A stretch of 64,000 nt of DNA, from positions 111,232 through 175,231 of the forward strand of contig JAUQQQ010000002.1 of assembly GCA_030549815.1 (NCBI GenBank). Reading direction: 5' to 3'. Each line of letters starts with the position of its first letter. Position 1 is the first letter of the stretch. The notes under the pieces are model-generated. The model ran no database searches and had not been told where the DNA came from. It saw only the letters and a list, made by a program, of their open reading frames with translations. Positions 8,176-47,207 of the stretch are shown in pieces. Both the position numbers and the translations under genes were made by a program. This DNA is from a bacterium (GTDB lineage: Bacteria > DRYD01).

Positions 8176-8354
8176 AATAATCATTTAAGAAAAATTTAAG
8201 AAAAACCCAAGAAAACTCTCCACAAATTATTCTCATTTGTATTCTTATTAATTCCTGGCGTAAAGGAAATTTTCAAAGACAGTTTCAGGAAGTAGTTTAA
8301 CTATTATCTCCAGTAACTTATGACTATTTAAGACTAAAATTCGTTATTACAAAA

Positions 8355-9414
8355 TTATATTTTAAAAACTTTTATTTTTCCATTTCTTTGGGTAAAAACA
8401 AAATATTTTCCATCATGGGAAATTTTTATATATCCTAACATTTCATTATCAATAACTTTTTCCAAAGCATAATTTTCTTCTTTTTTACCCACGTAAACAT
8501 CCATTCTGTTAAATTTTGGTTTGAAATTACCGATTATTATTGATTCTGAGTTTTTAGAAATGAAATTATATGAAGGTGGGAAATCTATTTGTTTTTGAAG
8601 ATAAATTTTATTTGAACTATAATCGAACAATGAATAATAAATTTGATTATTTTTCTTTATTCCGTATAAAATAAAATTATAAGAAAAACTTAATCCGCTA
8701 AAAGTTTCCCCTTCATCAATTTTCTTCATTTTTAATTCTTTATCAACTAATCCTAAATATTGTTTTTTATTTTCTTTTCCAACAAAAGCAATTTGTGAGT
8801 GGTTTAGAATTACAAAATTTAATGGATCAAATTTTTTTTCAAAAGCAGTTATGTTAAAGCCAGTGTTTATAAAACTTGGTTTATTTTCCACAGATTCTAT
8901 TTTCACGATATAATCATCTGTTGCATTTTGTTTTTCATCCATATAGTATCCTGTTGTAAATAAATTTTCTCCTTCGTACCAAATAAGCCCAAAAAACCTG
9001 AATGATTTCTTCCCATACTTAACAGTCGATAATTCTCTATAAGAATAATTTTTCATATCTATAACAGCTAAGGTAGTCAATTTATTACCTATTAGGAATA
9101 ATTTGCTGTCATCGTTACTAAAAAGGGATTGTTGAATACTATACATAGGTATATCGATTGAATCTATTTTATTGTTCTCCAAATTAATAAAGAATAGTCG
9201 GTAATTTTTATTTTGTTTTTTCATAGATACATTATTTATTGGTGCCATTGCGAATAATATCTTTGATGAATTATTAAATCCTCCTACGTAGAATTTTTTA
9301 GTATCCAGATTTTGGTCCGCTATATTATACAAGTCATATTCTTTAAAAACTGATGCAAAAACTAAGGAGATTATGAAAATAACAAAGGCCATTATACTTA
9401 TAAACTTTTTCATT
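8355..9414 (-). CDS. hypothetical secreted/lipoprotein-like protein, possibly propeller-like
   Basis: The likely true start is MKKFISIMAFVIF at 9414, preceded by AAGGAGG. It has a signal-peptide-like N-terminus and no recognisable catalytic motif. Confidence 0.4.
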
Positions 9415-9481
9415 ATTTGTTTCCTCCTTGGTGGAATAGATCCCACCCTTAAAATGTTAATTCATTTTTTATATTAGACAC

Positions 9482-9521
9482 AAAATAAACTCCCCCTTTG
9501 AAAAAAATATCAAAGGGGGAG
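9482..9521 (-). terminator. intrinsic terminator hairpin downstream of the 9544-10569 gene
   Basis: A perfect 12 bp inverted repeat, CTCCCCCTTTGA / TCAAAGGGGGAG, spans 9490-9521 with a 7 nt loop. It is followed by a T-rich run on the minus strand (TTTATTTT). Confidence 0.7.
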
Positions 9522-9543
9522 CTTGGTTACATGAATTCAATAT

Positions 9544-10569
9544 TTATTTAATATTATTGAATTTTACGCTTAATGCATTTGGATACCAATCCCACATAAG
9601 ATAAATCTTGCCATTTCTTTCAAAACTGCCAATCATATTTGGTGTGTATGAAGTATAAATCTTAGTTATACCTAATTCTTTTATATTTCTAATTTCATTC
9701 CTTTGTATTTTACCATCATTGTTAATGTCCTGATATACGTATAGATTATCCAATTCATTACCACTAATAAATTTATCTCCATTTAAATCCATTTCTTTTA
9801 GTTTTTCAAAACCATTGACATATCCATTAGATTGCCCAAATAATTCTTGCCCATTCAAGAATCCTCTTTGAACTATTTTATCAGGATTATCTGTAACTAA
9901 CAATAATCCATCATTTGGCCCTAACTTTTCAACTAAATCCAAAACTCCATCTCCATCTATATCCATAACTTGCCATGTTCTTTTCTGAATTTCTTCCTTA
10001 GTTGTTATTGGATAATTTATATGTTTTCCTGTAAATGTATCTATTTTCCTGTTTCCGTCCATATCTAATACAAGAGGAGATATGTCGTGAGTAGCCCATA
10101 CATGAACTTTTATTTCACCGGTTATATTACCTTGAATATTGATTTGCACATCACCTTCATCTGCTGCAGTAGCAGAGTAAGACCCAAACGCATCTTTAGA
10201 AGCATTGACATAACCTACACTTTCTCTTCCCGGAAAATAGAAATTATCTATGGAAGGTTGAGAGTAGGTAAGAAAGAAATTAGCATCAGCATATCCTATT
10301 GCTGCTAATATCTCTGCATTGGAATAATAAGTATTGTTAGCAATATCTTTTGCAGTATTTATCATTCCTTGTTTAAACTCTTCAGACCAGGTATTGGTTC
10401 CATCAAAATGATCATAGTAGTAACTTATATACTTTTGTTGTAAAACAATGTCTTTTTGAACAGTTTGAGTAAATGTTTGATCTTCTTGTATATTTCCTTT
10501 CTTTATACCTGCCATTGCAATAGTAATAAGGATAACAGCAATTAACATTAAATATAAAGCTTTCCTCAT
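9544..10569 (-). CDS. secreted protein with four EF-hand/dockerin-like Ca-binding loops
   Basis: Signal peptide MRKALYLMLIAVILITIAMA, with GGAGGTGA 9 nt before the ATG at 10569. Loops DIDGDGVLD, DMDGNRKID, DLNGDKFISGNELD and DINNDGKIQRNE fit the DxDxDG pattern. Confidence 0.45.
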   Translation of the reverse strand: MRKALYLMLIAVILITIAMAGIKKGNIQEDQTFTQTVQKDIVLQQKYISYYYDHFDGTNTWSEEFKQGMINTAKDIANNTYYSNAEILAAIGYADANFFLTYSQPSIDNFYFPGRESVGYVNASKDAFGSYSATAADEGDVQINIQGNITGEIKVHVWATHDISPLVLDMDGNRKIDTFTGKHINYPITTKEEIQKRTWQVMDIDGDGVLDLVEKLGPNDGLLLVTDNPDKIVQRGFLNGQELFGQSNGYVNGFEKLKEMDLNGDKFISGNELDNLYVYQDINNDGKIQRNEIRNIKELGITKIYTSYTPNMIGSFERNGKIYLMWDWYPNALSVKFNNIK

Positions 10570-10676
10570 TATCATTCACCTCCTTTTACATTTATATTTA
10601 TAATCAAAAATTTCTAAAAAATGTTAACAAAATGTTACAAAAATTAAGAAAAATTAAGAAAAAACCACTTCAAAAA

Positions 10677-11237
10677 TTACTGATTTTGATTACTAATCTT
10701 TTTATAATTTTCGTAAAACTCGAGGACTTTCTTAACATAATTTTGAGTTTCTTTGAAAGGAGGAATTCCTTTATGTTTTCTAACATTTCCTGGTCCTGCA
10801 TTATAAGCTGCAAGGGCAAGTCCAAGATCACCGAATTGGTTAATTAATTGTCTTAAGTATTTTGTTCCTCCCATGATATTTTGTTTTGGGTCAAATGAAT
10901 TCTTTACACCAACGGCTTTTGCTGTGTTACTCGTTAACTGCATCAAACCTTTAGCTCCTACTTTTGAAACTGATCTTGGATTAAAATTACTCTCTTTTTT
11001 TATAATTGCTTTTATTAAATTAGGATCTACATTATACTTTTTAGAAGCTTCACAAATTATATCATCAAATTTATCTTCAACACCACCAGCTTTTGCTATA
11101 CTACAAGCCAACTTTTCCTGAATTTCTAATTTTTTCCTATTATTATCAAAACCCTTATGTGTTTCAATTTGATTATTTACAATTACCCGCCTTTCAAAAT
11201 TAATTCTATTCCTTTCAATGTTTGAATTTATATTCAT
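10677..11237 (-). CDS. lytic transglycosylase (SLT domain)
   Basis: KESNFNP, GAKGLMQL and AYNAGPGNV are the classic SLT catalytic motifs. Confidence 0.75.
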   Translation of the reverse strand: MNINSNIERNRINFERRVIVNNQIETHKGFDNNRKKLEIQEKLACSIAKAGGVEDKFDDIICEASKKYNVDPNLIKAIIKKESNFNPRSVSKVGAKGLMQLTSNTAKAVGVKNSFDPKQNIMGGTKYLRQLINQFGDLGLALAAYNAGPGNVRKHKGIPPFKETQNYVKKVLEFYENYKKISNQNQ

Positions 11238-11324: not shown

Positions 11325-12098
11325 CTATTTTCCAAGGAAAAAGAAAGCATAAACAAATCCCAAAATTATTCTGTAAACACCAAAAACAAAAAACGAATTT
11401 TTTGACAGAAAATTTAATAAATACCTAACAACTATTAAAGCAGAAATAAAAGAAGATAAAAAGCCAATAACTAACAAATGAATATCATGAAAAGTCAAAA
11501 TATGAAAAGATTTATAAATATCATAGGTTGATGCCATTAACATAGTAGGCACAGCAAGAATGAACGAAAATTCAGCAGCAGATTTCCTGCTTAATCCCAT
11601 CAGCATTCCACCAATTATTGTAGCCCCCGACCTCGAAACACCAGGTATCATCGCTATGCTCTGAAAAACACCTATTGCAAATGCTCTCCTTAAATCTAAA
11701 GAAGTAATATCATTAATTTTAGCAAATCTTCCAGCATAATTATCCGCAAATATCAATAATAAACCACCAATGATCAAAGATATAACAACAACCAAATCAT
11801 TACCTATTAAATAAGACTTTATCAATTTATACAATAAAAACCCTAAAATTCCAGTAGGAATAAAAGCAATTAATATCCTTTTCCAAACTTGAAAATCCCT
11901 TAGAAATCTTTCAAAATAAACAAAAATAACGGCAAATATTGCTCCCAATTGTATTACTATAGTAAATGTTTTGACAAAATCAGTTTGTTGTATTTTCATT
12001 ATATGAGTAGCCAATGTTAAATGCCCTGTGGATGATATCGGTAAAAACTCTGTTATTCCCTCTATTATTCCTAAAATTATCGCTTGCAAAATACTCAT
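11325..12098 (-). CDS. uppP: undecaprenyl-diphosphatase UppP/BacA
   Basis: N-terminus MSILQAIILGIIEGITEFLPISSTGHL and GVSRSGATI. 257 aa and polytopic. Confidence 0.9.
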   Translation of the reverse strand: MSILQAIILGIIEGITEFLPISSTGHLTLATHIMKIQQTDFVKTFTIVIQLGAIFAVIFVYFERFLRDFQVWKRILIAFIPTGILGFLLYKLIKSYLIGNDLVVVISLIIGGLLLIFADNYAGRFAKINDITSLDLRRAFAIGVFQSIAMIPGVSRSGATIIGGMLMGLSRKSAAEFSFILAVPTMLMASTYDIYKSFHILTFHDIHLLVIGFLSSFISALIVVRYLLNFLSKNSFFVFGVYRIILGFVYAFFFLGK

Positions 12099-12214
12099 TA
12101 ATTTTTTATTCTACAATTCTCTAAAAAATCTTTTATAAAAGGAAATAATAAAAATTTGAAGAAATATCTATTGAGAAATTAAAAATATGTAAGTAAAAGA
12201 AATATTCTCTTATT

Positions 12215-12433
12215 ATGTGTTTAGGTGTTCCATTAAAAATTGTCCAAAAGATAGATGAAAATAACGCATTAGTTGATATTGGGGGAAGCAAAATGGAAGT
12301 ATGTATCGCTTTAACTCCAGAAGCAAAGGAAGGAGATTTTATAATTGTTCATGCGGGATTTTCAATTTCTATCCTTTCAGAAGAAGAAGCAAATTATATT
12401 ATCAATTTAACACAAACCTCAAATTACAATTAA
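12215..12433 (+). CDS. hypC: [NiFe]-hydrogenase maturation factor HypC
   Basis: N-terminal MCLGVP with the essential Cys2. 72 aa. Confidence 0.85.
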   Translation: MCLGVPLKIVQKIDENNALVDIGGSKMEVCIALTPEAKEGDFIIVHAGFSISILSEEEANYIINLTQTSNYN

Positions 12434-12458
12434 GCCCAAAAGAAAGGAGTAAAAAAGA

Positions 12459-14633
12459 ATGAGTATAACAAAAAAAAGATGGATAACTGATTGGTGGCCA
12501 AATAGATTGAACCTTAAGATACTAAGACAAAACTGTCCAACATCAAATCCCTATGGAGTAGATTACAACTATATTGAAGAAGTCCAAACACTCGATATAG
12601 ACGAAGTTATAAAAGATTTAAAAGACTTAATGAAAAAATCTCAGAAGTGGTGGCCAGCAGACTTTGGACACTATGGACCTTTATTTATAAGATTAGCATG
12701 GCATAGTGCAGGAAGTTATAGAATATTCGATGGTAGAGGCGGAGCAAGAGACGGAAGCATAAGATTCCCCCCAAGAATTAACTGGCCTGATAATATTTCT
12801 TTAGACAAAGCAATAAAGCTATTATGGCCAATAAAAAAGAAATACGGAAAGAAACTTTCATGGGCAGATTTAATAATATTATCAGGAACCATCGCTTTCG
12901 AAGATATGGGAATGAAAATATTAGGATTTTCATTAGGAAGAGAAGATATTTTTGAACCTGATGAAAGCGTATATTGGGGACCAGAAGAAGAAATGCTCTC
13001 CTCAAAAAGAGGAAAAGAAGAAAATGTTGAAAGACCATTAGCAGCAACAGAAATGGGATTAATTTATGTTAATCCCGAAGGACCAGGTGGTAATCCAGAC
13101 CCATTACAATCTGCAAAGGAAATTAGGGAAATTTTTGCACGAATGGGAATGAACGATGAGGATACAGTGGCTTTGGTTGCTGGAGGACATTCATTTGGTA
13201 AATGCCATGGTGCCGCTTCAGACAAATATCTTGGAAAAGATCCATCATCCTCACCTGTAGAAATGCAAGGATTAGGCTGGAAATTTGAATATGGAACCGG
13301 TAAAGGACCTGATACATTTACATCCGGATTTGAACTGACCTGGAGCCCTACACCTACCAAATTTGGTATATACTATTTGAAGCTACTATTTGAATACGAA
13401 TGGGAATTAATGAAAAGTCCCGCTGGTAAATATCAGTGGGTAGCTAAAGATGCACCAGAAATAATACCTGATGCACATGATCCAAATAAAAAACATAAAC
13501 CAATGATGTTAACAGCAGATTTAGCCTTTAGATACGATCCCCAATACGCCCAAATATGTAAAAAATTTATCGAAAACCCTGACGAATTTGAAAAAGCTGT
13601 AGCCAGAGCATGGTTCAAACTAACACACAGAGATATGGGACCTAAAACATGTTATATTGGTAAATATGTTCCCCAACAATCTTTCATATGGCAAGATATA
13701 ATGCCAGAAAGAAATTACGAGGTTGTTGATAAAGAAGACATAAGAAAACTAAAAGAAGAGCTTATAAATTCTGGATTGTCAATAAGAGAAATGGTATATT
13801 ATGCCTACGTTTCTGCATCAAGTTACAGAAATTCAGATAGAAGAGGTGGAGCAAACGGAGGAAGAATAAGATTGCATCCATTCAATAAATGGAAGATTAA
13901 CATGCCACAAATACTACCAAAAGTAATCAAGGTATATGAAGAAATTACAAATAAATTCAATAATGAACAAAACAATAAGGGAAGTAAAAAAAGAATATCT
14001 ATAGCAGATTTAATAATATTAGGAGGATGCGTCGGAATAGAACAAGCAGCTAAAAAAGCAGGATTTAATATTGAAGTGCCATTTACTCCAGGCAGAGTTG
14101 ATACTACACAGGAACTTATAGAAGTTGAATTTTATGAAAAAATAGAACCTTTTGCAGACGGATTTATTAACTTCTTTGATAAAGATTTCGACGAAAACAA
14201 TATTTATTCAACACCTGAATACTACTTAGTAGATAAAGCTCATTTACTCACTCTAACAGTTCCAGAAATGTGTGTCCTTTTAGCAGGCTTAAGAACAATT
14301 GGAGCTACTTACAATTTTGAAAATTACGGAGTATTAACGGATAATCCTGAATCTTTATCAAATGACTTCTTCGTAAATATCCTTGATATGAATTACGAAT
14401 GGGAAAGAATTGATAAAAAAGGATATCTATTTAAATGCAAAAATAAAGAATGGACAGCAACAAGAGTTGACCTAATTTTTTCTCATCACGATGAATTGAA
14501 AGCAGTAGCGGAAGTTTATGCATCTGATGATTCAAAAGAAAAATTCATAAATGACTTTGTAAAAGTATGGCATAAATTAATGAATCTCGATAGATTCGAT
14601 TTAATCTTCAAAAAAGAACCATTGAAAGTTTAA
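12459..14633 (+). CDS. katG: catalase-peroxidase KatG
   Basis: WWPNRLNLKIL, RLAWHSAGSYR and a two-lobed 724 aa architecture. The RBS AAGGAG precedes the start. Confidence 0.95.
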   Translation: MSITKKRWITDWWPNRLNLKILRQNCPTSNPYGVDYNYIEEVQTLDIDEVIKDLKDLMKKSQKWWPADFGHYGPLFIRLAWHSAGSYRIFDGRGGARDGSIRFPPRINWPDNISLDKAIKLLWPIKKKYGKKLSWADLIILSGTIAFEDMGMKILGFSLGREDIFEPDESVYWGPEEEMLSSKRGKEENVERPLAATEMGLIYVNPEGPGGNPDPLQSAKEIREIFARMGMNDEDTVALVAGGHSFGKCHGAASDKYLGKDPSSSPVEMQGLGWKFEYGTGKGPDTFTSGFELTWSPTPTKFGIYYLKLLFEYEWELMKSPAGKYQWVAKDAPEIIPDAHDPNKKHKPMMLTADLAFRYDPQYAQICKKFIENPDEFEKAVARAWFKLTHRDMGPKTCYIGKYVPQQSFIWQDIMPERNYEVVDKEDIRKLKEELINSGLSIREMVYYAYVSASSYRNSDRRGGANGGRIRLHPFNKWKINMPQILPKVIKVYEEITNKFNNEQNNKGSKKRISIADLIILGGCVGIEQAAKKAGFNIEVPFTPGRVDTTQELIEVEFYEKIEPFADGFINFFDKDFDENNIYSTPEYYLVDKAHLLTLTVPEMCVLLAGLRTIGATYNFENYGVLTDNPESLSNDFFVNILDMNYEWERIDKKGYLFKCKNKEWTATRVDLIFSHHDELKAVAEVYASDDSKEKFINDFVKVWHKLMNLDRFDLIFKKEPLKV

Positions 14634-14639
14634 CAAAAT

Positions 14640-15743
14640 ATGACAAATCTACAAAGTATCATAAAAATTACAAAAATAGGCAAAGATGAAGTAAACTTCC
14701 TAATTAACGAAATAAGAAAGTTAGCTTCAGACCGTGAATACTGCATAATGGAATTTTGTGGGACTCATACACATGAGATCTCAAGGTATGGTATTAGAAG
14801 TATCCTTCCAAAAACATTAGACCTTAAATCAGGCCCAGGGTGTCCAGTATGTGTAACTGCACAAGAAGATATCGACCATATAACAAGTATAGCAGAAAAA
14901 TACGACTTAGGAATAATCACATTTGGAGATATAATTAATGTTCCTGGTAGTAAAGGTAGCTTAAGCTACCTTAGAGCAAAGGGTAAAGAAGTAAAAGTAG
15001 TATATAATCCATTAGAATCTATCAAAATAGCTCAACAAAATCCAACTAAAAATTATGTTTTAATTGGAATAGGTTTTGAAACAACTGTCCCTGGATTGGC
15101 ATTCACTATAAAGAAAATTATTCAAAACAATATAAAAAATCTTTTTTATTTTTCTTTACATAAATTAACTCCTCCTGCAATGAAAGCACTCCTCGATCAA
15201 GGGGAAATTAAATTAGATGGTATAATCGGACCAGGACATGTATCCACTGTAATAGGAATAAAAAAATGGCAAGAGTTTATAGGAAAATATAACATACCAT
15301 TCGTTATAATGGGATTCGAACCAGAAGACATAATATACGGCATATACATCCTCTTGAAAAAAATAAAAAATAAAGAATATGGAGTTTTCAACACTTATTT
15401 TAGGAGTGTAAGTTTTGAAGGTAATATCTTGGCACAAAAAATCGTAGATGAAGTATTTGAAATATCAGATGCAAATTGGAGAGGATTTGGAATACTACCC
15501 AACAGCGGGTTAGAACTAAAAAAGGAATACCAACATATAGATGCAAAAAAAATATTCAAACTTGATGAACCTATAAAAGTAAAAAAAACTGGCTGTAGAT
15601 GCGGGGAAGTTTTAAGAGGAGTTATAAAACCATTTGAATGTCCTCTATTTAAAGTTGCTTGTAGTCCATCAAATCCAAAAGGTCCCTGCATGGTATCATC
15701 CGAAGGAACATGCTCAGCATATTATTTGTACGAGATAGAATAA
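14640..15743 (+). CDS. hypD: [NiFe]-hydrogenase maturation factor HypD
   Basis: FCGTHTHE, GPGCPVCV and FETT motifs. 367 aa. Confidence 0.9.
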   Translation: MTNLQSIIKITKIGKDEVNFLINEIRKLASDREYCIMEFCGTHTHEISRYGIRSILPKTLDLKSGPGCPVCVTAQEDIDHITSIAEKYDLGIITFGDIINVPGSKGSLSYLRAKGKEVKVVYNPLESIKIAQQNPTKNYVLIGIGFETTVPGLAFTIKKIIQNNIKNLFYFSLHKLTPPAMKALLDQGEIKLDGIIGPGHVSTVIGIKKWQEFIGKYNIPFVIMGFEPEDIIYGIYILLKKIKNKEYGVFNTYFRSVSFEGNILAQKIVDEVFEISDANWRGFGILPNSGLELKKEYQHIDAKKIFKLDEPIKVKKTGCRCGEVLRGVIKPFECPLFKVACSPSNPKGPCMVSSEGTCSAYYLYEIE

Positions 15744-15759
15744 AATTATCATATAACAC

Positions 15760-17088
15760 TTATTTTTCTACATAAAACCTTTTTCTTATTTTCTCTAATA
15801 CTTCATAATGATTAACAATAGGTTGATAATATGGTATTTTATGTTTTATAGGGTTATGTAATTTTTCGGGTTCTATTTTGGATAATTCTGGTAAATATTT
15901 TTTTATATATAAAGCATTGGGATCAAATTTTTGAGATTGCAGGATAGGGTTGAAAATTCTTAATGGTCGAGGATCAGGACCAACACTTGCAACCCATTGC
16001 CAATTACCAATGTTTACAATTTCGTCATAATCAAGTAAATGTTTGGAAAAAAATTTTTCTCCTATCATCCAACTCGAAAGTAAATGTTTAGTAAAAAAAG
16101 AACCAACAATTAGTCTTGCTCTGTTGTGCATCCATTTTTCCGTTTTTAACTGTATTATCGCTGCATCAACTATAGGATACCCTGTTTTTGCTTCAAAAAA
16201 TGCTTCTATGAGTTTTTCATTATTCTCCCACTCTATATTTCTCCTCTTTTCCTGAAATTCAAGATCAACAAAATCATTAAAGTAATGATATATGTGATAC
16301 CAGAATTCTCTCCAAGCTAATTCTTTAACAAAACTCTCACTCTTATTTTTTGAAAGCTGGTATATTTTTCTAATAGAAAATACTCCAAACCTTATATAAG
16401 GAGACAATTTAGAAGATCCATCTTCTGCTAAACTATTTCTTAAAATATCGTATTTGGAAAAATCATAATTTTTTATCCTATCTAAACCAAATTCATAATC
16501 CCAATATAAACCAAAATTTTTAATCTTCTCTTGTATAAAAGAGATAACTTTTTGTGTTTCTATTTCTAAAAAATCATCGAACAATGTTTTAACATTATAG
16601 TTAGGATCACTAATCATCTTTTCATCAACTTTACTCTTCCATTCGTTATAGAAATGCGTGAATATTTTTTTGAAGGGGATTTTTGCATAATCAACCAGAA
16701 CATTATCAAGAATTTGAATTAATTCAATACCTTTTAAGCTGAGGAATTTTTCAATTTTTCTTACTCTATTAATTCCTGCCTTAGTAAGAGGTTTAGATGT
16801 AAAAACCTTCGAAATTTCAAATTTTTCAATTAGCTTTTCAAATACTTTTTCATCTTCTTCAAAAAAAACATAAAGTTTTATCTTCCTTCTTAATTCTTCA
16901 ACTATATTTAAGATAAATTTTAGTCGAGGGTCAAAAAGAAGATTAGAAAAGCTTTGTAAGATAGATGGATTGAAAATAAATATTGGTATAAATTTCTCAG
17001 AATTATTAAAGCAAGCAAAAAGAGCTCTATTATCTTCTATTCTCAAATCTCTCTTAAACCAAAAAACATTTACTTTTTGTTTACTCAT
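15760..17088 (-). CDS. phr: deoxyribodipyrimidine photolyase / cryptochrome-family FAD protein
   Basis: WFKRDLRIEDNRAL N-terminus, WREFW, and TGYPIVDAAIIQLKTEKWMHNRARLIVGSFFTKHL (FAD-binding region). Confidence 0.8.
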   Translation of the reverse strand: MSKQKVNVFWFKRDLRIEDNRALFACFNNSEKFIPIFIFNPSILQSFSNLLFDPRLKFILNIVEELRRKIKLYVFFEEDEKVFEKLIEKFEISKVFTSKPLTKAGINRVRKIEKFLSLKGIELIQILDNVLVDYAKIPFKKIFTHFYNEWKSKVDEKMISDPNYNVKTLFDDFLEIETQKVISFIQEKIKNFGLYWDYEFGLDRIKNYDFSKYDILRNSLAEDGSSKLSPYIRFGVFSIRKIYQLSKNKSESFVKELAWREFWYHIYHYFNDFVDLEFQEKRRNIEWENNEKLIEAFFEAKTGYPIVDAAIIQLKTEKWMHNRARLIVGSFFTKHLLSSWMIGEKFFSKHLLDYDEIVNIGNWQWVASVGPDPRPLRIFNPILQSQKFDPNALYIKKYLPELSKIEPEKLHNPIKHKIPYYQPIVNHYEVLEKIRKRFYVEK

Positions 17089-19389: not shown

Positions 19390-20658
19390 TTATTTCTTCT
19401 CTTGATTACCTTCAGGTATAGGTACATTTTGTGGATTTTGTTGCTGCAAACTTTGTTGCTGTGGATTTTGTTGTTGGCTATATTGAGCATATGTCATGTT
19501 GAACTGTGGATTAAATTGTTGTTGTCCTTGATATGGATTATACGGTTGTTGAAAATAAGGTGGTTGTTGGAAATTTGGTTGGTAAGGTTGTTGAGGATAA
19601 GATTGCTGAGTATAAGGTTGCTGCGGATACTGTGGATACGGTTGTTGTGGATAATTTGGATAAGGTTGCTGTGGATATGAAGGGAAAGGTTGTTGTTGGT
19701 AATACGGTTGTTGATAAGGATACTGAGGGTATGGTCCAGGTCCAGGATATGGAGGTTGTTGATACATACCAAAACGTTTGAAATATTCCTCCTCAGTTAT
19801 ATACATTCCATTTAAGATATTTTGGCACTCTTGAGATTTTATCCATTCATCCAACTCTTTTACTCTATAAGGAACAAATGGATGAGTCATTTGAACCATT
19901 GCAATGTATTTATGAACAGTTTGCAAAAGATTAGTTTCATCCAATTGCCTTGCTTGCATAAGAACTTCATCAATGTTTACTTCTCCATCTGAATATTTAT
20001 GAGAATATCCTGCCAATTTAGACAAAGCTCTTAGTGCAGTATTTCTATCCTGGACAACAAGAAAACCTGCTCTATCAGCAGAGAATTCTGCCATTCTACT
20101 CCAATGTAATAAACCCAATTGCAAAGATAATGCAGCCAATTGACCAACTCCACCTAAAACAGCAGTTATTACACCTACCCCAAGGCTACCTAAAATATAA
20201 GCAATAGTCTTATTCAACATATGATCAAATTTATTGTGTCCTAATTCATGACCTATAACAAAAATTAATTCTTCTTCTGTAAGGATTTCTGTAAGGCCGC
20301 TTGTAACAACAACAAATTTTCTATCCATTCCCATTGCAAAAGCATTAGGAACCTCTGCAGTTTGAAGGAAAAATTCAGGTTCATAAGGTAAATCCAAAAT
20401 TTCTATTGCTTCTCTATAAACTTTGTAAAGCCTTGAATATTGATTAGGAGTAACTCTTAAAGCTTGCCCAGTAAAGATAACATACAGTGCTTCTTCACTA
20501 AATATCTTATTCAATATTTTAAATAACTGTGGTAGAAGTGGTATTTTCTTTAACCCCTCTGTAGCGACAGAATCAAATTTATGTTGAATAGCTTTGAGAG
20601 ATATTCCTGGAAACTTTAGTTTACCACTATCAGTCTTAGGCAAAGTAGTAGCTTGCAT
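19390..20658 (-). CDS. M48-family zinc metalloprotease (HtpX/Ste24-like) with a Q/P/Y-rich low-complexity C-terminal tail
   Basis: HELGHNKFDH (HExxH). The C-terminal ~115 aa consist of PQQPYP/YPQQPY-type repeats. Confidence 0.75.
   Translation of the reverse strand: MQATTLPKTDSGKLKFPGISLKAIQHKFDSVATEGLKKIPLLPQLFKILNKIFSEEALYVIFTGQALRVTPNQYSRLYKVYREAIEILDLPYEPEFFLQTAEVPNAFAMGMDRKFVVVTSGLTEILTEEELIFVIGHELGHNKFDHMLNKTIAYILGSLGVGVITAVLGGVGQLAALSLQLGLLHWSRMAEFSADRAGFLVVQDRNTALRALSKLAGYSHKYSDGEVNIDEVLMQARQLDETNLLQTVHKYIAMVQMTHPFVPYRVKELDEWIKSQECQNILNGMYITEEEYFKRFGMYQQPPYPGPGPYPQYPYQQPYYQQQPFPSYPQQPYPNYPQQPYPQYPQQPYTQQSYPQQPYQPNFQQPPYFQQPYNPYQGQQQFNPQFNMTYAQYSQQQNPQQQSLQQQNPQNVPIPEGNQEKK
19400..19750 (-). 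repeat. imperfect in-frame tandem repeats encoding the Q/P/Y-rich tail
   Basis: Repeated GGTTGTTG/GGATA(T/C)GG units on the plus strand generate spurious overlapping ORFs on both strands (19402-19781). Confidence 0.7.
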
Positions 20659-21915: not shown

Positions 21916-22002
21916 TGGTGCGGGTGGTGGGACTCGAACCCACACGCCCTGACGGGCACTACCCCCTCAAGATAGCGCGTCTACCAGTTCCGCCACACCC
22001 GC
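21916..22002 (-). tRNA. tRNA-Leu (anticodon GAG), 87 nt, CCA encoded
   Basis: GCGGGTGTGGCGGAACTGGTAGACGCGCTATCTTGAGGGGGTAGTGCCCGTCAGGGCGTGTGGGTTCGAGTCCCACCACCCGCACCA. It has a 7 bp acceptor stem, a long variable arm and an anticodon loop TTGAGGG. Confidence 0.85.
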
Positions 22003-30233: not shown

Positions 30234-32150
30234 CTACTTTATAGAAGCGTTTAATTGTCCTAAGGCAATCCCACTATCGTTAGGTGGAATATTTTTGTGA
30301 AAATAAATCTTAAAAACTCTAAATTTTTCTAATATTGAATAGCAAAGGATTTTATTTTGGAAAACTCCTCCAGAAAATCCGACAGTATCAATCCCATAAT
30401 TATCCATTATATTTTTCGCAATTTCATACATTGCTTGTGTAATAGTATTATGGAATTTTCTTGCTAAATCATTATAATTCTCATAATCCCTTTTTTCAAG
30501 GATATACTTAAAGGTTTCCAAGAAATCAACAATCAGCATATCATTTTCTTTATTAATACTGAATGGTAGGTAAGAATTTTCGCTTGATTTCAACGCCAAA
30601 TTTTCTAATTCTATTGCTGCTTGACCAGAAAACATTATTTTTTGATTTTCTCTTATTTTTAGCAGAACAGCAGCAATATCAAAAAGCCTTCCTACCGACG
30701 ATGTATAATAAACATTCTCATCTTTTTCTATCTGCTTTATTACTATCTGTTTTTGGAAGTTATTAATTTCATTAAATAAGTTCAACTTTTGTGGTAAAAA
30801 TTTAGCAACAAAAGAAAGTGCTATAAACACAGGATTCTCGATAGCAGAGTCACCCGCAACTATAGGGATATACCTAAAATGTGCTACCCTGTATAAATTA
30901 AAAATATCCCCAACAAAAACTTCTCCCCCCCAAATTTTTCCATCTTCCCCATAACCAGTACCATCAAAAGAAAACCCTATTAACTTGTCCTTGATATTCC
31001 TGTCAATTATTAAAGAATATATATGAGCCTTATGATGTTGCACCTTCCTTAATTCAACCCCTATATTATAAGATAAATCCTCAGCAAAAGTAGTAGATAA
31101 ATAATAAGGATGTAAATCGCAAACTACCATTTTTGGATTCAAATCATATAAATCGATCAATTTATGAACCATTTTCTGATAATTATCAAAAACATGTTGG
31201 CTAACAAGATGACCTAACCTTGTAGATAAGAATATTTTATTTTCTTTAACTAAACAAATAGAACTTTCCAATTCTGGCCCTAAACAAATACTATCAAAAA
31301 ATTCATAATCCGTTTTAATAAATTTTCCAACTCTTCCAATTCCTCTCCTAATACATAAACCCAGCTCATTATAAACAATAGAAAAATCCTGAATGTTATT
31401 GATTTTTAAATTATTATAAACAATGTATTTTACTTTATCATAAAATTTTTCTAAAACTTCTTCATCATCTATATAAGGGCTTTCTGAAGAAATATTTAAA
31501 CTACTAAATACCAAGGGTTTATTAAAAAAATTAAAAATCAAAACAAAAAAAGGATCATTAGCAATCCATATTCCGAAATAATCGTTACTTGAAATCTTGG
31601 AAGAAAATTTAGAATTTAAAGCTCTGATGATTTTTATATCAAGAGAATTATCATCGATCTTTTCCTCTGTTGTAATATATTCCTTCAACATTTCAAGAGA
31701 GGAAAAAGCTATAGGTAAAGGTTTTTGAGTTCTCTTTATACTTCTTAATTTTTCAATAGCTGATTCATTAGTTGCATCACAAATTAGATAATAAATATTA
31801 GAAGTCTTTAAAGCAATAATCTCTCCTTTACTTAAGATCATAGAAATCTCTTTGAACAGCAAGTAGTAATCTTCGAAATATTGGTTGTTCAAATATATCT
31901 TTGGACCACATTTAGAACAACATATAAAACTATACTTAAATCTTCTTGATTTAACATCATCATATTCTTTTTTACATTCATCACAAATATCAAAATACAA
32001 TTCTTTTTTTGAAAATATTGAAAAAAAAGAACCGCAATTATTACAACCACTAAAAGGATAAAAATATCTCCTACTATTTGGGTCCAAAATTTCATTCCTA
32101 CATTCCTGACAAATAGGTTTATCATTGTTTTCTTTAACTATTTCAATCAT
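30234..32150 (-). CDS. hypF: carbamoyltransferase HypF lacking the N-terminal acylphosphatase domain
   Basis: Two CxxC-x18-CxxC zinc fingers at the N-terminus, a YrdC-like block and a Kae1/HypF C-terminal domain. 638 aa. Confidence 0.85.
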   Translation of the reverse strand: MIEIVKENNDKPICQECRNEILDPNSRRYFYPFSGCNNCGSFFSIFSKKELYFDICDECKKEYDDVKSRRFKYSFICCSKCGPKIYLNNQYFEDYYLLFKEISMILSKGEIIALKTSNIYYLICDATNESAIEKLRSIKRTQKPLPIAFSSLEMLKEYITTEEKIDDNSLDIKIIRALNSKFSSKISSNDYFGIWIANDPFFVLIFNFFNKPLVFSSLNISSESPYIDDEEVLEKFYDKVKYIVYNNLKINNIQDFSIVYNELGLCIRRGIGRVGKFIKTDYEFFDSICLGPELESSICLVKENKIFLSTRLGHLVSQHVFDNYQKMVHKLIDLYDLNPKMVVCDLHPYYLSTTFAEDLSYNIGVELRKVQHHKAHIYSLIIDRNIKDKLIGFSFDGTGYGEDGKIWGGEVFVGDIFNLYRVAHFRYIPIVAGDSAIENPVFIALSFVAKFLPQKLNLFNEINNFQKQIVIKQIEKDENVYYTSSVGRLFDIAAVLLKIRENQKIMFSGQAAIELENLALKSSENSYLPFSINKENDMLIVDFLETFKYILEKRDYENYNDLARKFHNTITQAMYEIAKNIMDNYGIDTVGFSGGVFQNKILCYSILEKFRVFKIYFHKNIPPNDSGIALGQLNASIK

Positions 32151-32151
32151 G

Positions 32152-34023
32152 TCAGGATACCTCCTGAAAATTTTTTGAAAATTCTCGAGGGAAATTTTTC
32201 ATTGCAGTAATCAAAGGAATAGGAGCAGCTTGTCCCAATCCACATAAACTTGCATTCATAACAGTCCTAATTATTTCATCTATTTTTCTATCTAAATTTT
32301 TACCGTTAAGGAAATCATTCAGTTTTTCAGTTAATTTAACTGTGCCAACTCTACACGGGATACATTGACCACAACTCTCATCAGCAAAAAACTGCATTAA
32401 ATCCCTTACTAACTCTGGAATACTCATGCTATTGGGAATAGCAAAAATTGCTCCTGATCCTAACATAGCCCCTTCCCTCTGTATATCCTCATATGTATAA
32501 TCCAAATCAAGAGAAGAATTTGTTAATATCCCTCCTGACGGACCACCTATTAACAATCCTTTATTAGGTTCTCTAAAACCAAATCCAATTTCCTCTATTA
32601 TTTTTCTAACTTTTATCCCATATGGAACTTCGTTAACACAAGGATTATTAACATTTCCTGTTAACGAAATCATCTTCGTTCCAATAGATTGTCCTTTACC
32701 GTATTCTTTAAACACTTCTGGTCCGTAACTAACAGCACATGCTAAAGCAGCTAATGTTTCAACGTTATTTATTAAAGTAGGTTTTCCAAAAAGTCCTTGC
32801 TGGAAAGGGAAAGGTGGTCTATTTCTGGGCATAGCCTTCTTACCCTCTATTACTTCCAACATTGCAGTTTCTTCACCTGCAATATAAGCACTTGGCGACC
32901 TTCTTATTTCTATGTCAAAATCATTACTTACAAAATTAAAAAATCCCATATCCTTTGCTTGTTTTATAACATTTTTCAACCTCTCTATAGCTTCCTTAGC
33001 TTTGTAATTAACGAAGATATATCCTTTTGTTGCCCCCACAACATAAGCAGCAATAATTATTCCTTCAATAATAATGAAAGGATTAGATTCAGCAAGGATT
33101 ACATTACAGTAAGAAGCAACTTCACCCTCTTCCAGATTAGCAACTACAAATTTTGGATTTTCTTTCTGCTGCATTACTCCTTGCAATTTTATATGCAATG
33201 GGAAAGCGGCTCCTCCCCTACCCCTTATACCTGCCTCTTTTGCAATCTCTATAATTCTTTCCTTTCCTAATTCCACCGCCTTTTTTATACCTTCAAAACC
33301 ACCAATTTTAATATAACTGTCAATATTAAAAGGATCAACAAAATCATTGTATTTCATTATAATTTTGCCTTTTCTATCAAAATTTAAGAAATTCTCTCTA
33401 TTTATAATCGTAGGATCTTGTTTAATTTTATTAAGAAAAGTTGGTGATAGCTGAAAAACTTTGTTATCAATAATTCCTACAGGAGCAAAACCACAAAATC
33501 CTAAACAACCACAGTTCTCAACATCAAATCCTGATAAATCTACATCCTTATGTAAGCAATTACCAGCAACACATCTCCTTATCTTTATCTTCCCATTAAC
33601 ATTTGAGTTAAAAGATATGTTCCTTTCTAAATTTTTTACATCCGGATTTTTAATATTAATGATATATTCCATTTTTTGATTAAGAATAAAGCGATCTTTA
33701 AATTTAACTACCGGAGCTTGAGCACATTTCTTGAAACAATAAGATCTTCTTACATCAAACCCCTGTTTTTGTAGTTCTTCATATAACTTTCGAGAACCCT
33801 TTTCTAAACAAGATATTCCAAAACACACATAAACAGCATTTTTATTTTTTATTTCTGAAAACTCTTTATAAAAAGATATAATGGCCTTTATTTCATTTTT
33901 TACAATTTCCAATTCTTTTGACAAATTTTCTATATCTTTTTCTTCTATTCTTCCTTTTTCTTCCAAAATATCAAACAGTTTTTCTATGAGCAAAGATTTT
34001 TTTATTTGGTTCTCCTTTAACAT
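32152..34023 (-). CDS. NuoE-NuoF-like fused flavoprotein (NAD(P)-linked hydrogenase/diaphorase subunit, HndC/HoxF-like)
   Basis: An N-terminal thioredoxin-like 2Fe-2S motif (CFGISC..CFKKC), then RGRGGAAFP (FMN/NADH site) and CGQCIPCRVG (N3 4Fe-4S). Confidence 0.8.
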   Translation of the reverse strand: MLKENQIKKSLLIEKLFDILEEKGRIEEKDIENLSKELEIVKNEIKAIISFYKEFSEIKNKNAVYVCFGISCLEKGSRKLYEELQKQGFDVRRSYCFKKCAQAPVVKFKDRFILNQKMEYIINIKNPDVKNLERNISFNSNVNGKIKIRRCVAGNCLHKDVDLSGFDVENCGCLGFCGFAPVGIIDNKVFQLSPTFLNKIKQDPTIINRENFLNFDRKGKIIMKYNDFVDPFNIDSYIKIGGFEGIKKAVELGKERIIEIAKEAGIRGRGGAAFPLHIKLQGVMQQKENPKFVVANLEEGEVASYCNVILAESNPFIIIEGIIIAAYVVGATKGYIFVNYKAKEAIERLKNVIKQAKDMGFFNFVSNDFDIEIRRSPSAYIAGEETAMLEVIEGKKAMPRNRPPFPFQQGLFGKPTLINNVETLAALACAVSYGPEVFKEYGKGQSIGTKMISLTGNVNNPCVNEVPYGIKVRKIIEEIGFGFREPNKGLLIGGPSGGILTNSSLDLDYTYEDIQREGAMLGSGAIFAIPNSMSIPELVRDLMQFFADESCGQCIPCRVGTVKLTEKLNDFLNGKNLDRKIDEIIRTVMNASLCGLGQAAPIPLITAMKNFPREFSKNFQEVS

Positions 34024-35021
34024 ATTCTTGGTAATATATCTCCTTTCAAACTTTCTAATATTCTTCTGGTTCCTATTCTTGTAATGAGAAAAGTTTTCGG
34101 TTTTTCAAAGCTTTTTACTTTTCCTATAACTTTAGCATTTTTTCCTAATGGATGTTGATGAAGATACTCAATTATTTGCTGGGATTGGTTTTTGGAAGCG
34201 ACGATCACAGCTTTCCCTTCATTTGCAGCATATAGTGGGTCAATCCCCAATACTTCAGAAGCACTTATAACCCATTCTTTAACCGGTATTTCCTCTTCAT
34301 AAATTTCAATCTCAACTTTATATTTTTGGTTAATTTCATTGAGAACAGTAGCAACTCCACCCCTTGTTGCATCTCTAACAAACTTTATGCCATCAAATTT
34401 ATCAAGTAAAGGTAATATAAGGTTACTCAAGTTAGCCAAGTCTGATTGAACCTCATCATCAGTTTCTACTCCTAACCTTTCAAGCATAATATAAAGTCCA
34501 TGCTCTCCTATGGATCCAGTAACAATAATAACATCCTCTGGCTCTATTTTTCTATCTTTCCATTTTCTTTGTTTATCTATTATTCCTATACCCGATGTAT
34601 TGATAAAAACTTTATCTCCTTTATTTTTTTCAACAACCTTCGTGTCTCCTGTTATTATTTTTACATTGGCTTCCTGAGCTGCCTGCGAAATAGAATTGAG
34701 TATTCTTTTTAGATCTTTCATTTCGAATCCCTCTTCAAAAATAAAAGCAAGAGAGAGAAATAGTGGTTGAGCACCAACAACACAAAGATCATTAACCGTC
34801 CCAAAAACCGCCAACTTTCCTATATCCCCATTCTTAAAAAATATCGGATTAATAACATAAGAATCAGTAGTAAAAGCCAATGTACCAGAAATTTCAAATA
34901 TCCCCGAATCTAAAAGTTCATCAAGTATAGGATTAGAAAAATATCTCAAAAAATCTTTTTCTATTAAGTTCCGCATTGATTCTCCACCACTACCATGAGC
35001 CAACAAAATTAAATCACTCAT
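34017..35021 (-). CDS. hypE: [NiFe]-hydrogenase maturation factor HypE
   Basis: N-terminal LAHGSGG and the diagnostic C-terminal PRIC. 334 aa. Confidence 0.9.
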   Translation of the reverse strand: MSDLILLAHGSGGESMRNLIEKDFLRYFSNPILDELLDSGIFEISGTLAFTTDSYVINPIFFKNGDIGKLAVFGTVNDLCVVGAQPLFLSLAFIFEEGFEMKDLKRILNSISQAAQEANVKIITGDTKVVEKNKGDKVFINTSGIGIIDKQRKWKDRKIEPEDVIIVTGSIGEHGLYIMLERLGVETDDEVQSDLANLSNLILPLLDKFDGIKFVRDATRGGVATVLNEINQKYKVEIEIYEEEIPVKEWVISASEVLGIDPLYAANEGKAVIVASKNQSQQIIEYLHQHPLGKNAKVIGKVKSFEKPKTFLITRIGTRRILESLKGDILPRIC

Positions 35022-46482: not shown

Positions 46483-47207
46483 GAAACCACCGTTTCAAAT
46501 TTTCTTATTCTTTTTCCTTTAGATTCAAGGAATTTGGGCATATCAAACCTTCTGGTTTTTGATATTTCTTTATTTTTCATATACAAAGCACCCGTGGGAC
46601 ATACCATCACACACTTTCCACAACTAATACAAGTAGAAGATTCACCCCATTTATCATCAAAATCAATTATTATCCTCGAATTAGCTCCCATATTTTTAAC
46701 ATCCAATGTATGTGGCCCCGCATATTCATGACAAATCCTAACACACCTAAAACATAATATACACCTATTATGATCAATAACATAGAGCTTATGTGTATCA
46801 TCAACAGGAATATTTTCTTCATTATAATCAACTAATCTACCGTTTATCTCAAATATTTTATACTTCCAATTTTGTAGATCACAATACCCATCAGCTAAAC
46901 ACACATAACAGGGATGTGGTCTTTCCCCAAACAAAAACTCTGTTAAATACTTTCTATAAATTTTTAGTTTTTCAGTGTTTGTATAAACATGCATACCATC
47001 AAATGGTTTTGTTATGCAAGAAGAAACAGGACGTCTAAAACCTTTCACTTCAACAATACACATCCTACAAGCACCAATCGGAGTTAAACCATCCAGATGA
47101 CAACCCACAGGAATATACTTTCCTAAACTGCTAATTATCGAATACAAAGTTTGATTACTTTGTTCTTCATTTAACTCTATTTCTTGATCATCTATAAATA
47201 TCTTCAT
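46479..47207 (-). CDS. NuoG/HydA-N-terminal-like iron-sulfur protein (2Fe-2S plus 2x 4Fe-4S ferredoxin)
   Basis: C..CRMC..C 2Fe-2S, then CILCFRCVRIC and CISCGKCVMVCP. Confidence 0.65.
   Translation of the reverse strand: MKIFIDDQEIELNEEQSNQTLYSIISSLGKYIPVGCHLDGLTPIGACRMCIVEVKGFRRPVSSCITKPFDGMHVYTNTEKLKIYRKYLTEFLFGERPHPCYVCLADGYCDLQNWKYKIFEINGRLVDYNEENIPVDDTHKLYVIDHNRCILCFRCVRICHEYAGPHTLDVKNMGANSRIIIDFDDKWGESSTCISCGKCVMVCPTGALYMKNKEISKTRRFDMPKFLESKGKRIRKFETVVS

Follow-up and report, generated by a model that had tools for sequence, protein, structure and literature searches.

Genes and signals at the hypC-katG-hypD locus

The window, by which is meant the whole 64,000-nucleotide stretch of DNA that was analysed, carries on its forward strand a block in which a catalase-peroxidase gene stands between two genes of [NiFe]-hydrogenase maturation. 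The first of these, hypC (12215-12433, +), encodes a maturation chaperone of 72 amino acids (Pfam HupF_HypC, 1.9e-22; TIGR00074, 65.6 bits against a cutoff of 48), whose N-terminus MCLGVP includes the essential Cys2 and which is 66-69% identical to the HypC of the related loci L007, L008 and L009. A spacer of 25 nt (12434-12458, +), which carries the strong Shine-Dalgarno sequence AAAGGAG (12443-12449), leads to katG (12459-14633, +), the gene for a bifunctional catalase-peroxidase HPI of 724 amino acids (Pfam peroxidase, 2.1e-64; TIGR00198, 1156.2 bits against a cutoff of 770.25). Reading of the sequence leaves 6 nt, CAAAAT (14634-14639, +), between the katG stop and the start of hypD (14640-15743, +), which encodes a protein of 367 residues, the Fe-S scaffold on which Fe(CN)2CO is assembled (Pfam HypD, 6.5e-140; TIGR00075, 440 bits against a cutoff of 193). 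HypD has the motifs FCGTHTHE, GPGCPVCV, GFETT and GPGHVS together with the C-terminal Cys cluster, and is 84% identical to the HypD of Ca. Calescibacterium SKYB82, so the HypC/HypD pair both shows its hallmark motifs and exceeds both curated cutoffs.

The neighbours of the block are bacA (11325-12098, -; Pfam PF02673) and a photolyase (15760-17088, -; profile annotation) which is convergent with hypD, and the window tRNAs closest to katG lie at 21916 and 53347. In the first-pass annotation of this DNA katG separated hypC from hypD, at distances of 25 and 6 bp, and this placement is confirmed by the open reading frames, by Pfam and NCBIfam profiles, and by no fewer than eight independent assemblies of this species, whose nucleotide identity of about 99% (99.1-99.6%) spans 17-22 kb on both sides of the join. 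The gene order and both gaps are identical in six of these other assemblies (L001-L006), and the order agrees over the extent of two more, of which one (L022) ends within katG and the other (L023) within hypD.

The encoded KatG is intact and has two domains (NF011635, 1099 bits against a cutoff of 981): the Pfam peroxidase profile matches two stretches, as expected of two fused peroxidase-like domains, and an internal repeat of 79 nt at 1107-nt spacing (the 1.1-kb repeat D1) corresponds to the two-domain duplication. Alignment to the Burkholderia pseudomallei enzyme 5l05 (E 2e-259, residues 10-715 covered) gives matches to BpKatG R108/W111/H112, D141, Y238, M264, H279, W330, D389 and R426, with positions counted from the alignment, so that the distal Arg-Trp-His, the proximal His/Trp/Asp, the Met-Tyr-Trp cross-link residues and the mobile Arg are all conserved. 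The best explanation is that katG is a functional catalase-peroxidase gene, for whose product both activity and haem b binding are predicted. The window KatG is not identical to the common allele P0001, from which it departs at one or more residues, and an exact look-up gave no match. Among strains the variable codons number seven synonymous and one nonsynonymous in katG, and six synonymous and none nonsynonymous in hypD, the one hyp gene examined in this way; both genes are under purifying selection.

The signals that surround these genes bear on how they are expressed. The Shine-Dalgarno sequence of katG lies 9 nt before its ATG, in the slot which in all relatives holds a GGAGG-type sequence directly before the hypD ATG (in L007, AAGGAGG, 8 nt, ATG), and this comparison supports the proposal that katG captured the ribosome-binding site of hypD. 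Upstream of its start hypD has no Shine-Dalgarno sequence of its own, and none is obvious before hypC. Since katG occupies the ribosome-binding slot of hypD and hypD lacks a replacement, translation of hypD is probably coupled to that of katG, as the spacing suggests. Co-transcription of the three genes, which the first-pass annotation took to follow from their proximity, is plausible on the basis of the 25- and 6-bp gaps and of a consensus scan that returned no terminator-like site on the forward strand within 12215-15743. The unit presumably has its promoter in the divergent, AT-rich intergenic region of 116 bp between bacA and hypC (12099-12214), where no consensus promoter passed the scan. 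A promoter-like match, TTGAAA-17-GATAAT at 14317-14345 within the 3' end of katG, could drive hypD independently; the scan found 27 promoter-like sites where shuffled sequence leads one to expect 34.7, and is uninformative in such AT-rich DNA.

Base composition and homologs of katG

By eye, katG had been judged to have about 40% GC and to favour G/C-ending codons in the manner of a horizontally acquired gene, and neither impression survived measurement. Its total GC is 34.0%, the third-highest of the 53 window genes, and the excess lies in codon positions 1 and 2 (GC1 0.443, GC2 0.352). Its GC3 is 0.226, where the genes of the window average 0.208 (SD 0.025). The GC expected from the amino-acid composition of KatG and the window's synonymous codon usage is 0.343, and that observed is 0.341; in the amino-acid-corrected test the GC3 of katG has a z-score of -0.54 and ranks 22nd of 53. 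Its codon-usage divergence (KL), 0.076 per codon, lies within the range of the other long genes (0.040-0.087). In GC3 and codon usage katG is therefore indistinguishable from the native genes of the window, an outcome that the first-pass annotation had listed first among those counting against its view, and because its total GC is predicted by amino-acid composition there is no compositional sign of recent transfer. Such native-like codon usage means that any transfer is old, so that the gene has ameliorated, or that the donor was equally AT-rich. KatG homologs elsewhere have a GC3 of 0.39-0.51, equal to that of their hosts, just as the GC3 of the window katG equals that of its own host. Neither direct nor inverted repeats of the kind left as target-site duplications bracket katG, the only repeats being those of the internal domain duplication of KatG, and no recombinase, att-like scar or mobile-element gene was found at katG.

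Matches to HypD and HoxH track organismal relatedness, falling in Calescibacterium, then Dictyoglomaceae, then Caldisericia. The taxonomy of the KatG matches is discordant with this: the best homologs, at most 76% identical to the window protein, are unnamed or come from Thermodesulfatator, Thermosulfidibacter, Thermotoga, Deferribacter, Methanophagales and an archaeal contig, and the hosts of the closest known sequences are unrelated, GC-richer thermophiles, an archaeon among them. None of the 120 best matches, all at least 69% identical, is labelled as Calescibacterium, although proteins of named Calescibacterium MAGs are present in the searched collection, where the HypD and HoxH matches are so labelled. 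Elsewhere the homologs adjoin Fur-family regulators, integrase fragments or transposases, and none of the homolog loci examined has katG beside hyp genes. A KatG phylogeny had been proposed as a means of identifying the donor lineage; the neighbour-joining tree of the 120 homologs is star-like, most of its members are unnamed, and the window KatG stands by itself on a long branch, with a weak pairing to Thermosulfidibacter, so that the tree names no donor.

The hypC/hypD junction in relatives and the dispersed hydrogenase operon

The source organism is related to Candidatus Calescibacterium (Calescibacterota), and the evidence for a foreign or secondary origin of katG comes from comparative synteny. 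In five relatives, L007, L016, L017, L018 and L019 (HypD 84%, 75%, 73%, 68% and 64% identical to that of the window), hypC adjoins or overlaps hypD within a Hox-type [NiFe] hydrogenase operon, which upholds the earlier statement that the two genes are usually adjacent. No katG is found at the hyp locus in any of the seven relatives, and the synteny with close relatives breaks at hypC/hypD. In the remaining two, L008 and L009 (HypD 83% and 81% identical), a cassette of an AbiLi/PDC-M38A ATPase and a DUF3226 protein, resembling AbiL-type defence, lies exactly at the hypC/hypD junction, and so the one site received two independent insertions, katG here and the AbiL-like cassette there. In SKW172 and SKYB25 the ORFs of the AbiL-like inserts are split, either as true pseudogenes or through errors of low coverage. 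The loci of close relatives number three only, of which two come from low-coverage MAGs; the survey was extended to further relatives through the protein collection, and a HypD alignment run against metagenome contigs from JGI found no relatives. Relative to L007 several local rearrangements are seen, in that bacA, an S49 peptidase block and hypE/hypF have all moved; a non-coding stretch of 2 kb which follows hypD in L007 gave no tblastn match to remnants of hypE or nuoEF. Across the relatives, intact, pseudogenised and invaded versions of the Hox operon are observed.

The rest of the hydrogenase system in the window lies on the reverse strand. Three tightly packed genes at 30234-35021 (-), about 15 kb from the hypC-katG-hypD block, were identified by Pfam and NCBIfam as hypE (34017-35021, -), whose product ends in PRIC, a HoxF-like NuoE/NuoF fusion (32152-34023, -), and a hypF without the acylphosphatase domain (30234-32150, -), in agreement with the first-pass annotation, which had hypE and hypF split off together with a NuoEF-like gene. 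These proteins are 57-75% identical to those of L016 and L017, in which hypE, nuoEF and hypF flank hypC-hypD, and on this comparison the cluster is a second fragment of the ancestral operon, with NuoEF as its HoxF-like diaphorase subunit. A stand-alone gene (46479-47207, -), flanked by genes for a YjeF-type NAD(P)HX repair enzyme and a prolyl-tRNA synthetase, encodes a HoxU-like 2Fe-2S/4Fe-4S protein of 242 amino acids that scores 246 bits with NF005745 HoxU, below the cutoff of 333. Over their N-terminal part, the HoxU-like subunits encoded in the operons of relatives share 38-41% identity with it.

The window had been described as free of hydrogenase structural subunits, which holds for the catalytic subunits by tblastn and Pfam but not for the HoxF-like and HoxU-like genes just described. 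With HoxH and HoxY of L007 as tblastn queries no match at E < 1e-3 was obtained in the window, and no NiFeSe_Hases or Oxidored_q6 domain occurs among the scanned window ORFs and the precomputed calls to the left of bacA, five further window ORFs being covered by the tblastn search alone. Neither the window nor the DNA directly beside it has hoxY, hoxH, hypA or the genes for the protease and the Mrp/ParA-type ATPase, no hydrogenase, hypA or hypB gene occurs in the roughly 9 kb to its right or 4 kb to its left, and no HoxH cluster was found with a contig footprint matching that of the window species, in which the structural genes for HoxY and HoxH seem to be missing.

Origin and meaning of the arrangement

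The reading that best accounts for these observations, to which we assign a probability of about 0.7, is that katG, ultimately of foreign origin, was inserted secondarily and long ago into the hypC-hypD spacer in an opportunistic invasion of the operon. It is synteny and phylogenetic distribution, not base composition, that lead to this reading, and the earlier claim of horizontal acquisition into the hyp operon thus survives as regards a secondary insertion and fails as regards a recent transfer visible in GC3 and codon usage. The ancestral locus would have been a Hox-type [NiFe] operon of the order hoxU-hoxY-hoxH-protease-hypF-hypC-hypD-hypE-hoxF, whose short hypC-hypD spacer katG would have entered in a lineage with kinship to Candidatus Calescibacterium. 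The gene would since have ameliorated to host-like synonymous codons, with no mobile-element scar left. Transcription would run from the bacA-hypC intergenic region through hypC, katG and hypD; katG would be translated from the strong Shine-Dalgarno sequence at the former slot of that of hypD, and hypD, starting 6 nt past the katG stop, most likely by termination-reinitiation coupling to katG. The remainder of the operon is likewise dispersed in this species, with hypE-hoxF-hypF about 15 kb away, and hoxY and hoxH have apparently been lost. The linkage would then reflect the invasion of an insertion-tolerant junction and give no evidence of a mechanistic partnership of KatG with hydrogenase maturation.

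It is possible, if unlikely, that a katG long resident in the genome, whether vertically inherited or gained very early, was moved into the hypC/hypD spacer during the rearrangements that scattered the hyp genes, without a separate transfer at this site. The fully native codon usage is equally compatible with an old resident, the species has clearly seen several local rearrangements relative to L007 (bacA, the S49 peptidase block, hypE/hypF), and a resident catalase is expected in an aerobic lineage (PMC4791363, PMC11696919). A resident gene should, however, have a Calescibacterium ortholog at some 80-85% identity, and none was among the 120 best matches in a collection that holds Calescibacterium proteins; the neighbours of KatG are instead taxonomically scattered.

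Considerably less probable is that the placement was selected, with peroxide removal by KatG shielding the O2/H2O2-labile Fe-S/Fe(CN)2CO scaffold of HypCD, or making the expression of Hyp follow oxidative conditions. HypD is a [4Fe-4S] protein, its translation appears to depend on katG, and the arrangement is fixed, with katG and hypD under purifying selection; the host inhabits oxygenated water of about 80 C (PMC11696919). Against this, the arrangement is confined to a single species, the other KatG homologs examined are never linked to hyp genes, the literature searched gave no katG-hyp link, and the junction in sister lineages is empty or holds an unrelated defence cassette, which points to a permissive site rather than to a selected partnership. 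A wider coupling of H2 metabolism with defence against oxygen and UV, proposed from the photolyase immediately downstream on the opposite strand, fared no better: the photolyase is there, but it is convergent, belongs to a different operon, and does not occur in the 21-kb hyp locus of L007, so a katG-photolyase-hyp stress island was rejected. The lineage inhabits oxic, sunlit hot-spring streamers at about 80 C (PMC11696919, PMC4791363), a habitat that explains both genes without any coupling.

Recent acquisition of katG from a GC-richer donor, with the composition of that donor retained, is very improbable. Its total GC (0.340) is indeed the third-highest of the 53 window genes, and homologs do sit in GC-richer hosts next to integrase and transposase genes; but the GC3 of 0.226 and the synonymous codons (z = -0.54) are those of native genes, the observed GC of 0.341 is that given by amino-acid composition (0.343), no known homolog exceeds 76% identity, flanking repeats and mobile-element genes are absent around katG, and the insertion is fixed in all sampled strains. 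The source organism is uncultured and known from metagenome assemblies only, but that the join is an assembly or binning chimera has a negligible probability and was rejected, because identical joins occur in independent assemblies from ENA (two studies), the NCBI MAG GCA_041640495.1 and three Logan SRA assemblies, at 99.1-99.6% identity over 17-22 kb.

The katG of this locus is thus a case of ordinary operon reshuffling by an old insertion, not of fresh gene transfer, and a cautionary one, as a gene that looks GC-rich by eye is compositionally native once amino-acid composition is counted. In a deep-branching aerobic hot-spring lineage (Calescibacterota) which is dismantling an ancestral NAD-linked hydrogenase operon, the hypC/hypD junction has taken up unrelated cargo at least twice. 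There is a slim chance that this species has lost HoxY and HoxH but keeps hypC, hypD, hypE, hypF and the HoxF/HoxU-like parts, with katG wired translationally to hypD, and that, provided the genome has no other [NiFe] hydrogenase, the Fe(CN)2CO-building Hyp machinery of this aerobic hyperthermophile serves a non-hydrogenase client or a role linked to peroxide or oxygen stress. Persistence of hyp genes without any hydrogenase would, if true, be worth following up; otherwise the locus is a gene-order curiosity of well-understood enzymes.

Set beside known systems, the window KatG falls in the same length class as the bacterial HPI enzymes of Burkholderia pseudomallei (5L05) and M. tuberculosis (1SJ2), and shares with them the two-domain class I peroxidase architecture, the catalytic and adduct residues and the Arg switch. 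A classic katG is monocistronic or paired with a regulator of the Fur/PerR/OxyR type; the katG of the 76% homolog (L013) is so paired, whereas that of the window has no neighbouring regulator and sits between hypC and hypD. Compared with the hypABFCDE operons that accompany the Hox-type (group 3, NAD-linked) hydrogenases of L016 and L017, the window has orthologous HypC, HypD, HypE and HypF (57-84% identity) with their hallmark motifs and keeps the HoxF-like fusion and the HoxU-like protein, but its genes are split into hypC-katG-hypD and hypE-hoxF-hypF and the catalytic subunits are missing. The insertion shares its hypC/hypD junction, empty in the other relatives, with the AbiL-like cassette of L008 and L009, but the cargo is unrelated: there it is a defence cassette, and here a housekeeping-type stress enzyme that came to rest without recombinase, repeats or att-like scars.

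Gene order at the hypC-hypD junction

On the + strand of the window, hypC (12215-12433; Pfam HupF_HypC, 1.9e-22), katG (12459-14633, 724 aa; Pfam peroxidase, 2.1e-64; TIGR00198 "catalase/peroxidase HPI", 1156 bits, cutoff 770) and hypD (14640-15743; Pfam HypD, 6.5e-140; TIGR00075, 440 bits, cutoff 193) lie exactly where the first-pass annotation had placed them, with spacers of 25 and 6 bp between the ORFs, and these Pfam and NCBIfam matches leave no doubt as to the predicted identities of the three proteins. The photolyase gene (15760-17088, - strand) and the cluster of hypE, a NuoE-NuoF fusion and hypF (35021 down to 30234, - strand) also match their earlier description by Pfam. The order and gaps are identical in six loci from other assemblies of the species (L001-L006), and two further loci, which end inside katG (L022) and inside hypD (L023), are concordant over the sequence covered. 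An assembly artefact at the join is ruled out by the independent ENA, NCBI-MAG and Logan assemblies, at 99.1-99.6% nucleotide identity. The strains do differ by a 2.75-kb indel: the stretch 8268-11020, absent from assembly ERZ27245615 (L001/L023), contains two genes without a known function, one encoding an SPM/EF-hand-like secreted protein, and part of an SLT transglycosylase gene, for which several strains have calls of 144 + 39 aa and the window has one of 186 aa.

A HypD scan of species-representative genomes yielded three relatives with HypD 81-84% identical, two labelled Candidatus Calescibacterium sp. (L007, SKYB82; L009, SKYB25) and one labelled "bacterium" (L008, SKW172), and a HypD protein search added four more distant ones (L016-L019); the HypD identity matrix groups the window with L007 and L008 (83-86%) and leaves L016-L019 outside. 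None of these seven hyp loci contains katG. In L007 the order is hypA, a Mrp/ParA-type ATPase, HoxU-like, small subunit, HoxH-type large subunit, protease, hypF, hypC and hypD, with 29 nt between the last two. L016 (75%) and L017 (73%) share the order hoxU-hoxY-hoxH-protease-hypF-hypC-hypD-hypE-nuoEF, in which the hypC and hypD ORFs overlap (by 14 and 8 bp, respectively), and this layout is the fuller form of the ancestral operon. In L018 (68%) and L019 (64%) hypF-hypC-hypD-hypE are still together and parts of the operons are decaying: L019 carries hoxH in pieces of 46, 167 and 126 aa (11975-13431), and L018 (7305-8645, 10172-11176) has a hypF cut short at 446 aa and a hypE divided between two called ORFs.

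The junction in L008 and L009 is occupied by about 1.3 kb of other cargo (L008:8638-9971; L009:8590-9973), an AbiL-like defence pair consisting of an AbiLi/PDC-M38A-type ATPase (AAA_15/AAA_21) and a DUF3226 protein. The pair is broken up over 2-3 ORFs, which may reflect real pseudogenisation or low-coverage error (the contig names give 2.9x and 6.2x). Taken with the HypD identity grouping, the junctions of the relatives imply by parsimony that hypC and hypD were ancestrally adjacent, and that two independent insertions have occurred at one permissive junction. The proposal that katG was inserted into the hyp operon is supported by synteny, the decisive line of evidence, and not by the compositional argument originally offered for it.

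Base composition and origin of katG

The GC content of katG had been put at about 40% by eye, which was an overstatement: the measured total is 34.0%, third among the 53 genes of the window. The surplus sits in codon positions 1 (0.443) and 2 (0.352), and GC3 is 0.226 versus a window-gene mean of 0.208 ± 0.025. When amino-acid composition is combined with the synonymous codon usage pooled over all other genes to give an expected GC for each gene, katG has an observed value of 0.341 versus 0.343 expected and a GC3 z-score of -0.54 (rank 22/53), and its codon-usage divergence of 0.076 per codon lies inside the range of 0.040-0.087 spanned by the remaining genes that have 400 codons or more. The visible surplus is therefore that of a Gly/Ala/Pro/Arg/Trp-rich enzyme in a 29% GC genome, and composition fails as evidence of horizontal transfer. 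Homologs elsewhere have GC3 values of 0.39-0.51, in line with their own hosts. A similar local GC peak (0.35) comes from an M48 peptidase gene (19390-20658, - strand), whose product has a long C-terminal tail of low complexity, rich in Q, P and Y, with PQQPY-type repeats over about 130 aa.

Outside the species, the best KatG matches reach at most 76% identity and are unnamed or come from scattered thermophiles (Deltaproteobacteria MAGs, bacterium HR37, Thermodesulfatator, Thermosulfidibacter, Thermotoga, Deferribacter, Methanophagales), and in a star-like neighbour-joining tree the window sequence occupies a lone long branch that points to no donor. Among the homologs placed in context none has hyp genes nearby: one (L013, 76%) adjoins a divergent Fur-family regulator, one (L014) stands alone, one (L015) has a DDE transposase and toxin-antitoxin genes in its vicinity, and a 74%-identical KatG (P0124/P0005) is encoded on archaeal contigs (L010/L011, with a ribosomal protein S3Ae gene close by), immediately downstream of phage-integrase ORFs that are in fragments (L010:1786-2188; L011:100-502), a sign of movement of katG between domains in thermal environments. 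The lone branch, the scattered matches and the host-like codon usage together indicate that katG was probably acquired long ago, or from an AT-rich donor that has not been sampled. No repeats or recombinase genes marking the insertion were found, and the insertion event is old rather than recent. That a long-resident katG was instead relocated within the genome seems unlikely; the 120 best KatG matches include no Calescibacterium-labelled protein, though the collection searched holds proteins so labelled.

Expression and functional state

A sequence scan of the + strand from hypC to the end of hypD found no terminator-like site. In every relative a GGAGG-type Shine-Dalgarno sequence lies right before the hypD ATG; the window has a similar motif, AAAGGAG (12443-12449), 9 nt upstream of the katG ATG, and hypD, which starts 6 nt past the katG stop, lacks a good one. 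On the simplest reading, the katG ORF would have landed between the hypD ribosome-binding site and the hypD start codon, and hypD would be translated by reinitiation after katG.

All catalytic and adduct residues of KatG align (R108/W111/H112, D141, Y238, M264, H279, W330, D389 and R426 in the numbering of the B. pseudomallei enzyme), and the protein is a predicted catalase-peroxidase. HypC starts with MCLG, HypD carries its characteristic motifs and HypE ends in PRIC. Variable codons among strains comprise 7 synonymous and 1 nonsynonymous in katG and 6 and 0 in hypD, which, with about 20% of sites synonymous, argues for purifying selection on both genes, small as the counts are. There is no evidence for the suggested functional unit of katG, photolyase and Hyp proteins coupling H2 metabolism to O2 and UV defence. 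Calescibacterium/Calescamantes are aerobic heterotrophs of oxygenated (40-50 uM DO) hot-spring streamer communities at about 80 C (PMC4791363, PMC11696919), a habitat in which neither a catalase-peroxidase nor a photolyase comes as a surprise.

The divided hydrogenase operon

In the window species the ancestral operon is split into hypC-katG-hypD and hypE-hoxF(nuoEF)-hypF, and a stand-alone HoxU-like gene (46479-47207) is retained apart from both. No HoxY or HoxH homolog occurs in the window or in the 4-9 kb of flanking sequence followed on each side; with a relative's HoxH as query the matches mirror the HypD list, and the protein collection contains no HoxH cluster with the footprint of the window species (15-19 contigs, four sources). 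These results suggest that the species has lost the Hox-type catalytic subunits while keeping the maturases under selection. The maturases may have been left without a client, or a hydrogenase of another class may depend on them; the obvious explanation would be a different class of [NiFe] hydrogenase encoded at another place in the genome.

Where L016 and L017 carry hypE-nuoEF, L007 has about 2.1 kb directly 3' of hypD (L007:11105-13224) with a single 62-aa ORF, otherwise no ORF of at least 60 aa, and no detectable hypE/nuoEF remnant, which may be decayed or non-coding sequence. Throughout the lineage HypF (window 30234-32150, - strand; L007:7762-9744; L016:6675-8648; L017:4998-6911) is about 640-660 aa long and begins at the zinc-finger region, without the N-terminal acylphosphatase domain; the window copy matches TIGR00143 from model position 97 only, scoring 443, just under the cutoff of 466.

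Overall, the enzymes are standard ones and their arrangement, though unusual, can be explained, so that the interest of the finding is low to moderate; the only points that appear worth pursuing are the repeated use of the hypC-hypD junction and a Hyp machinery that may be orphaned.
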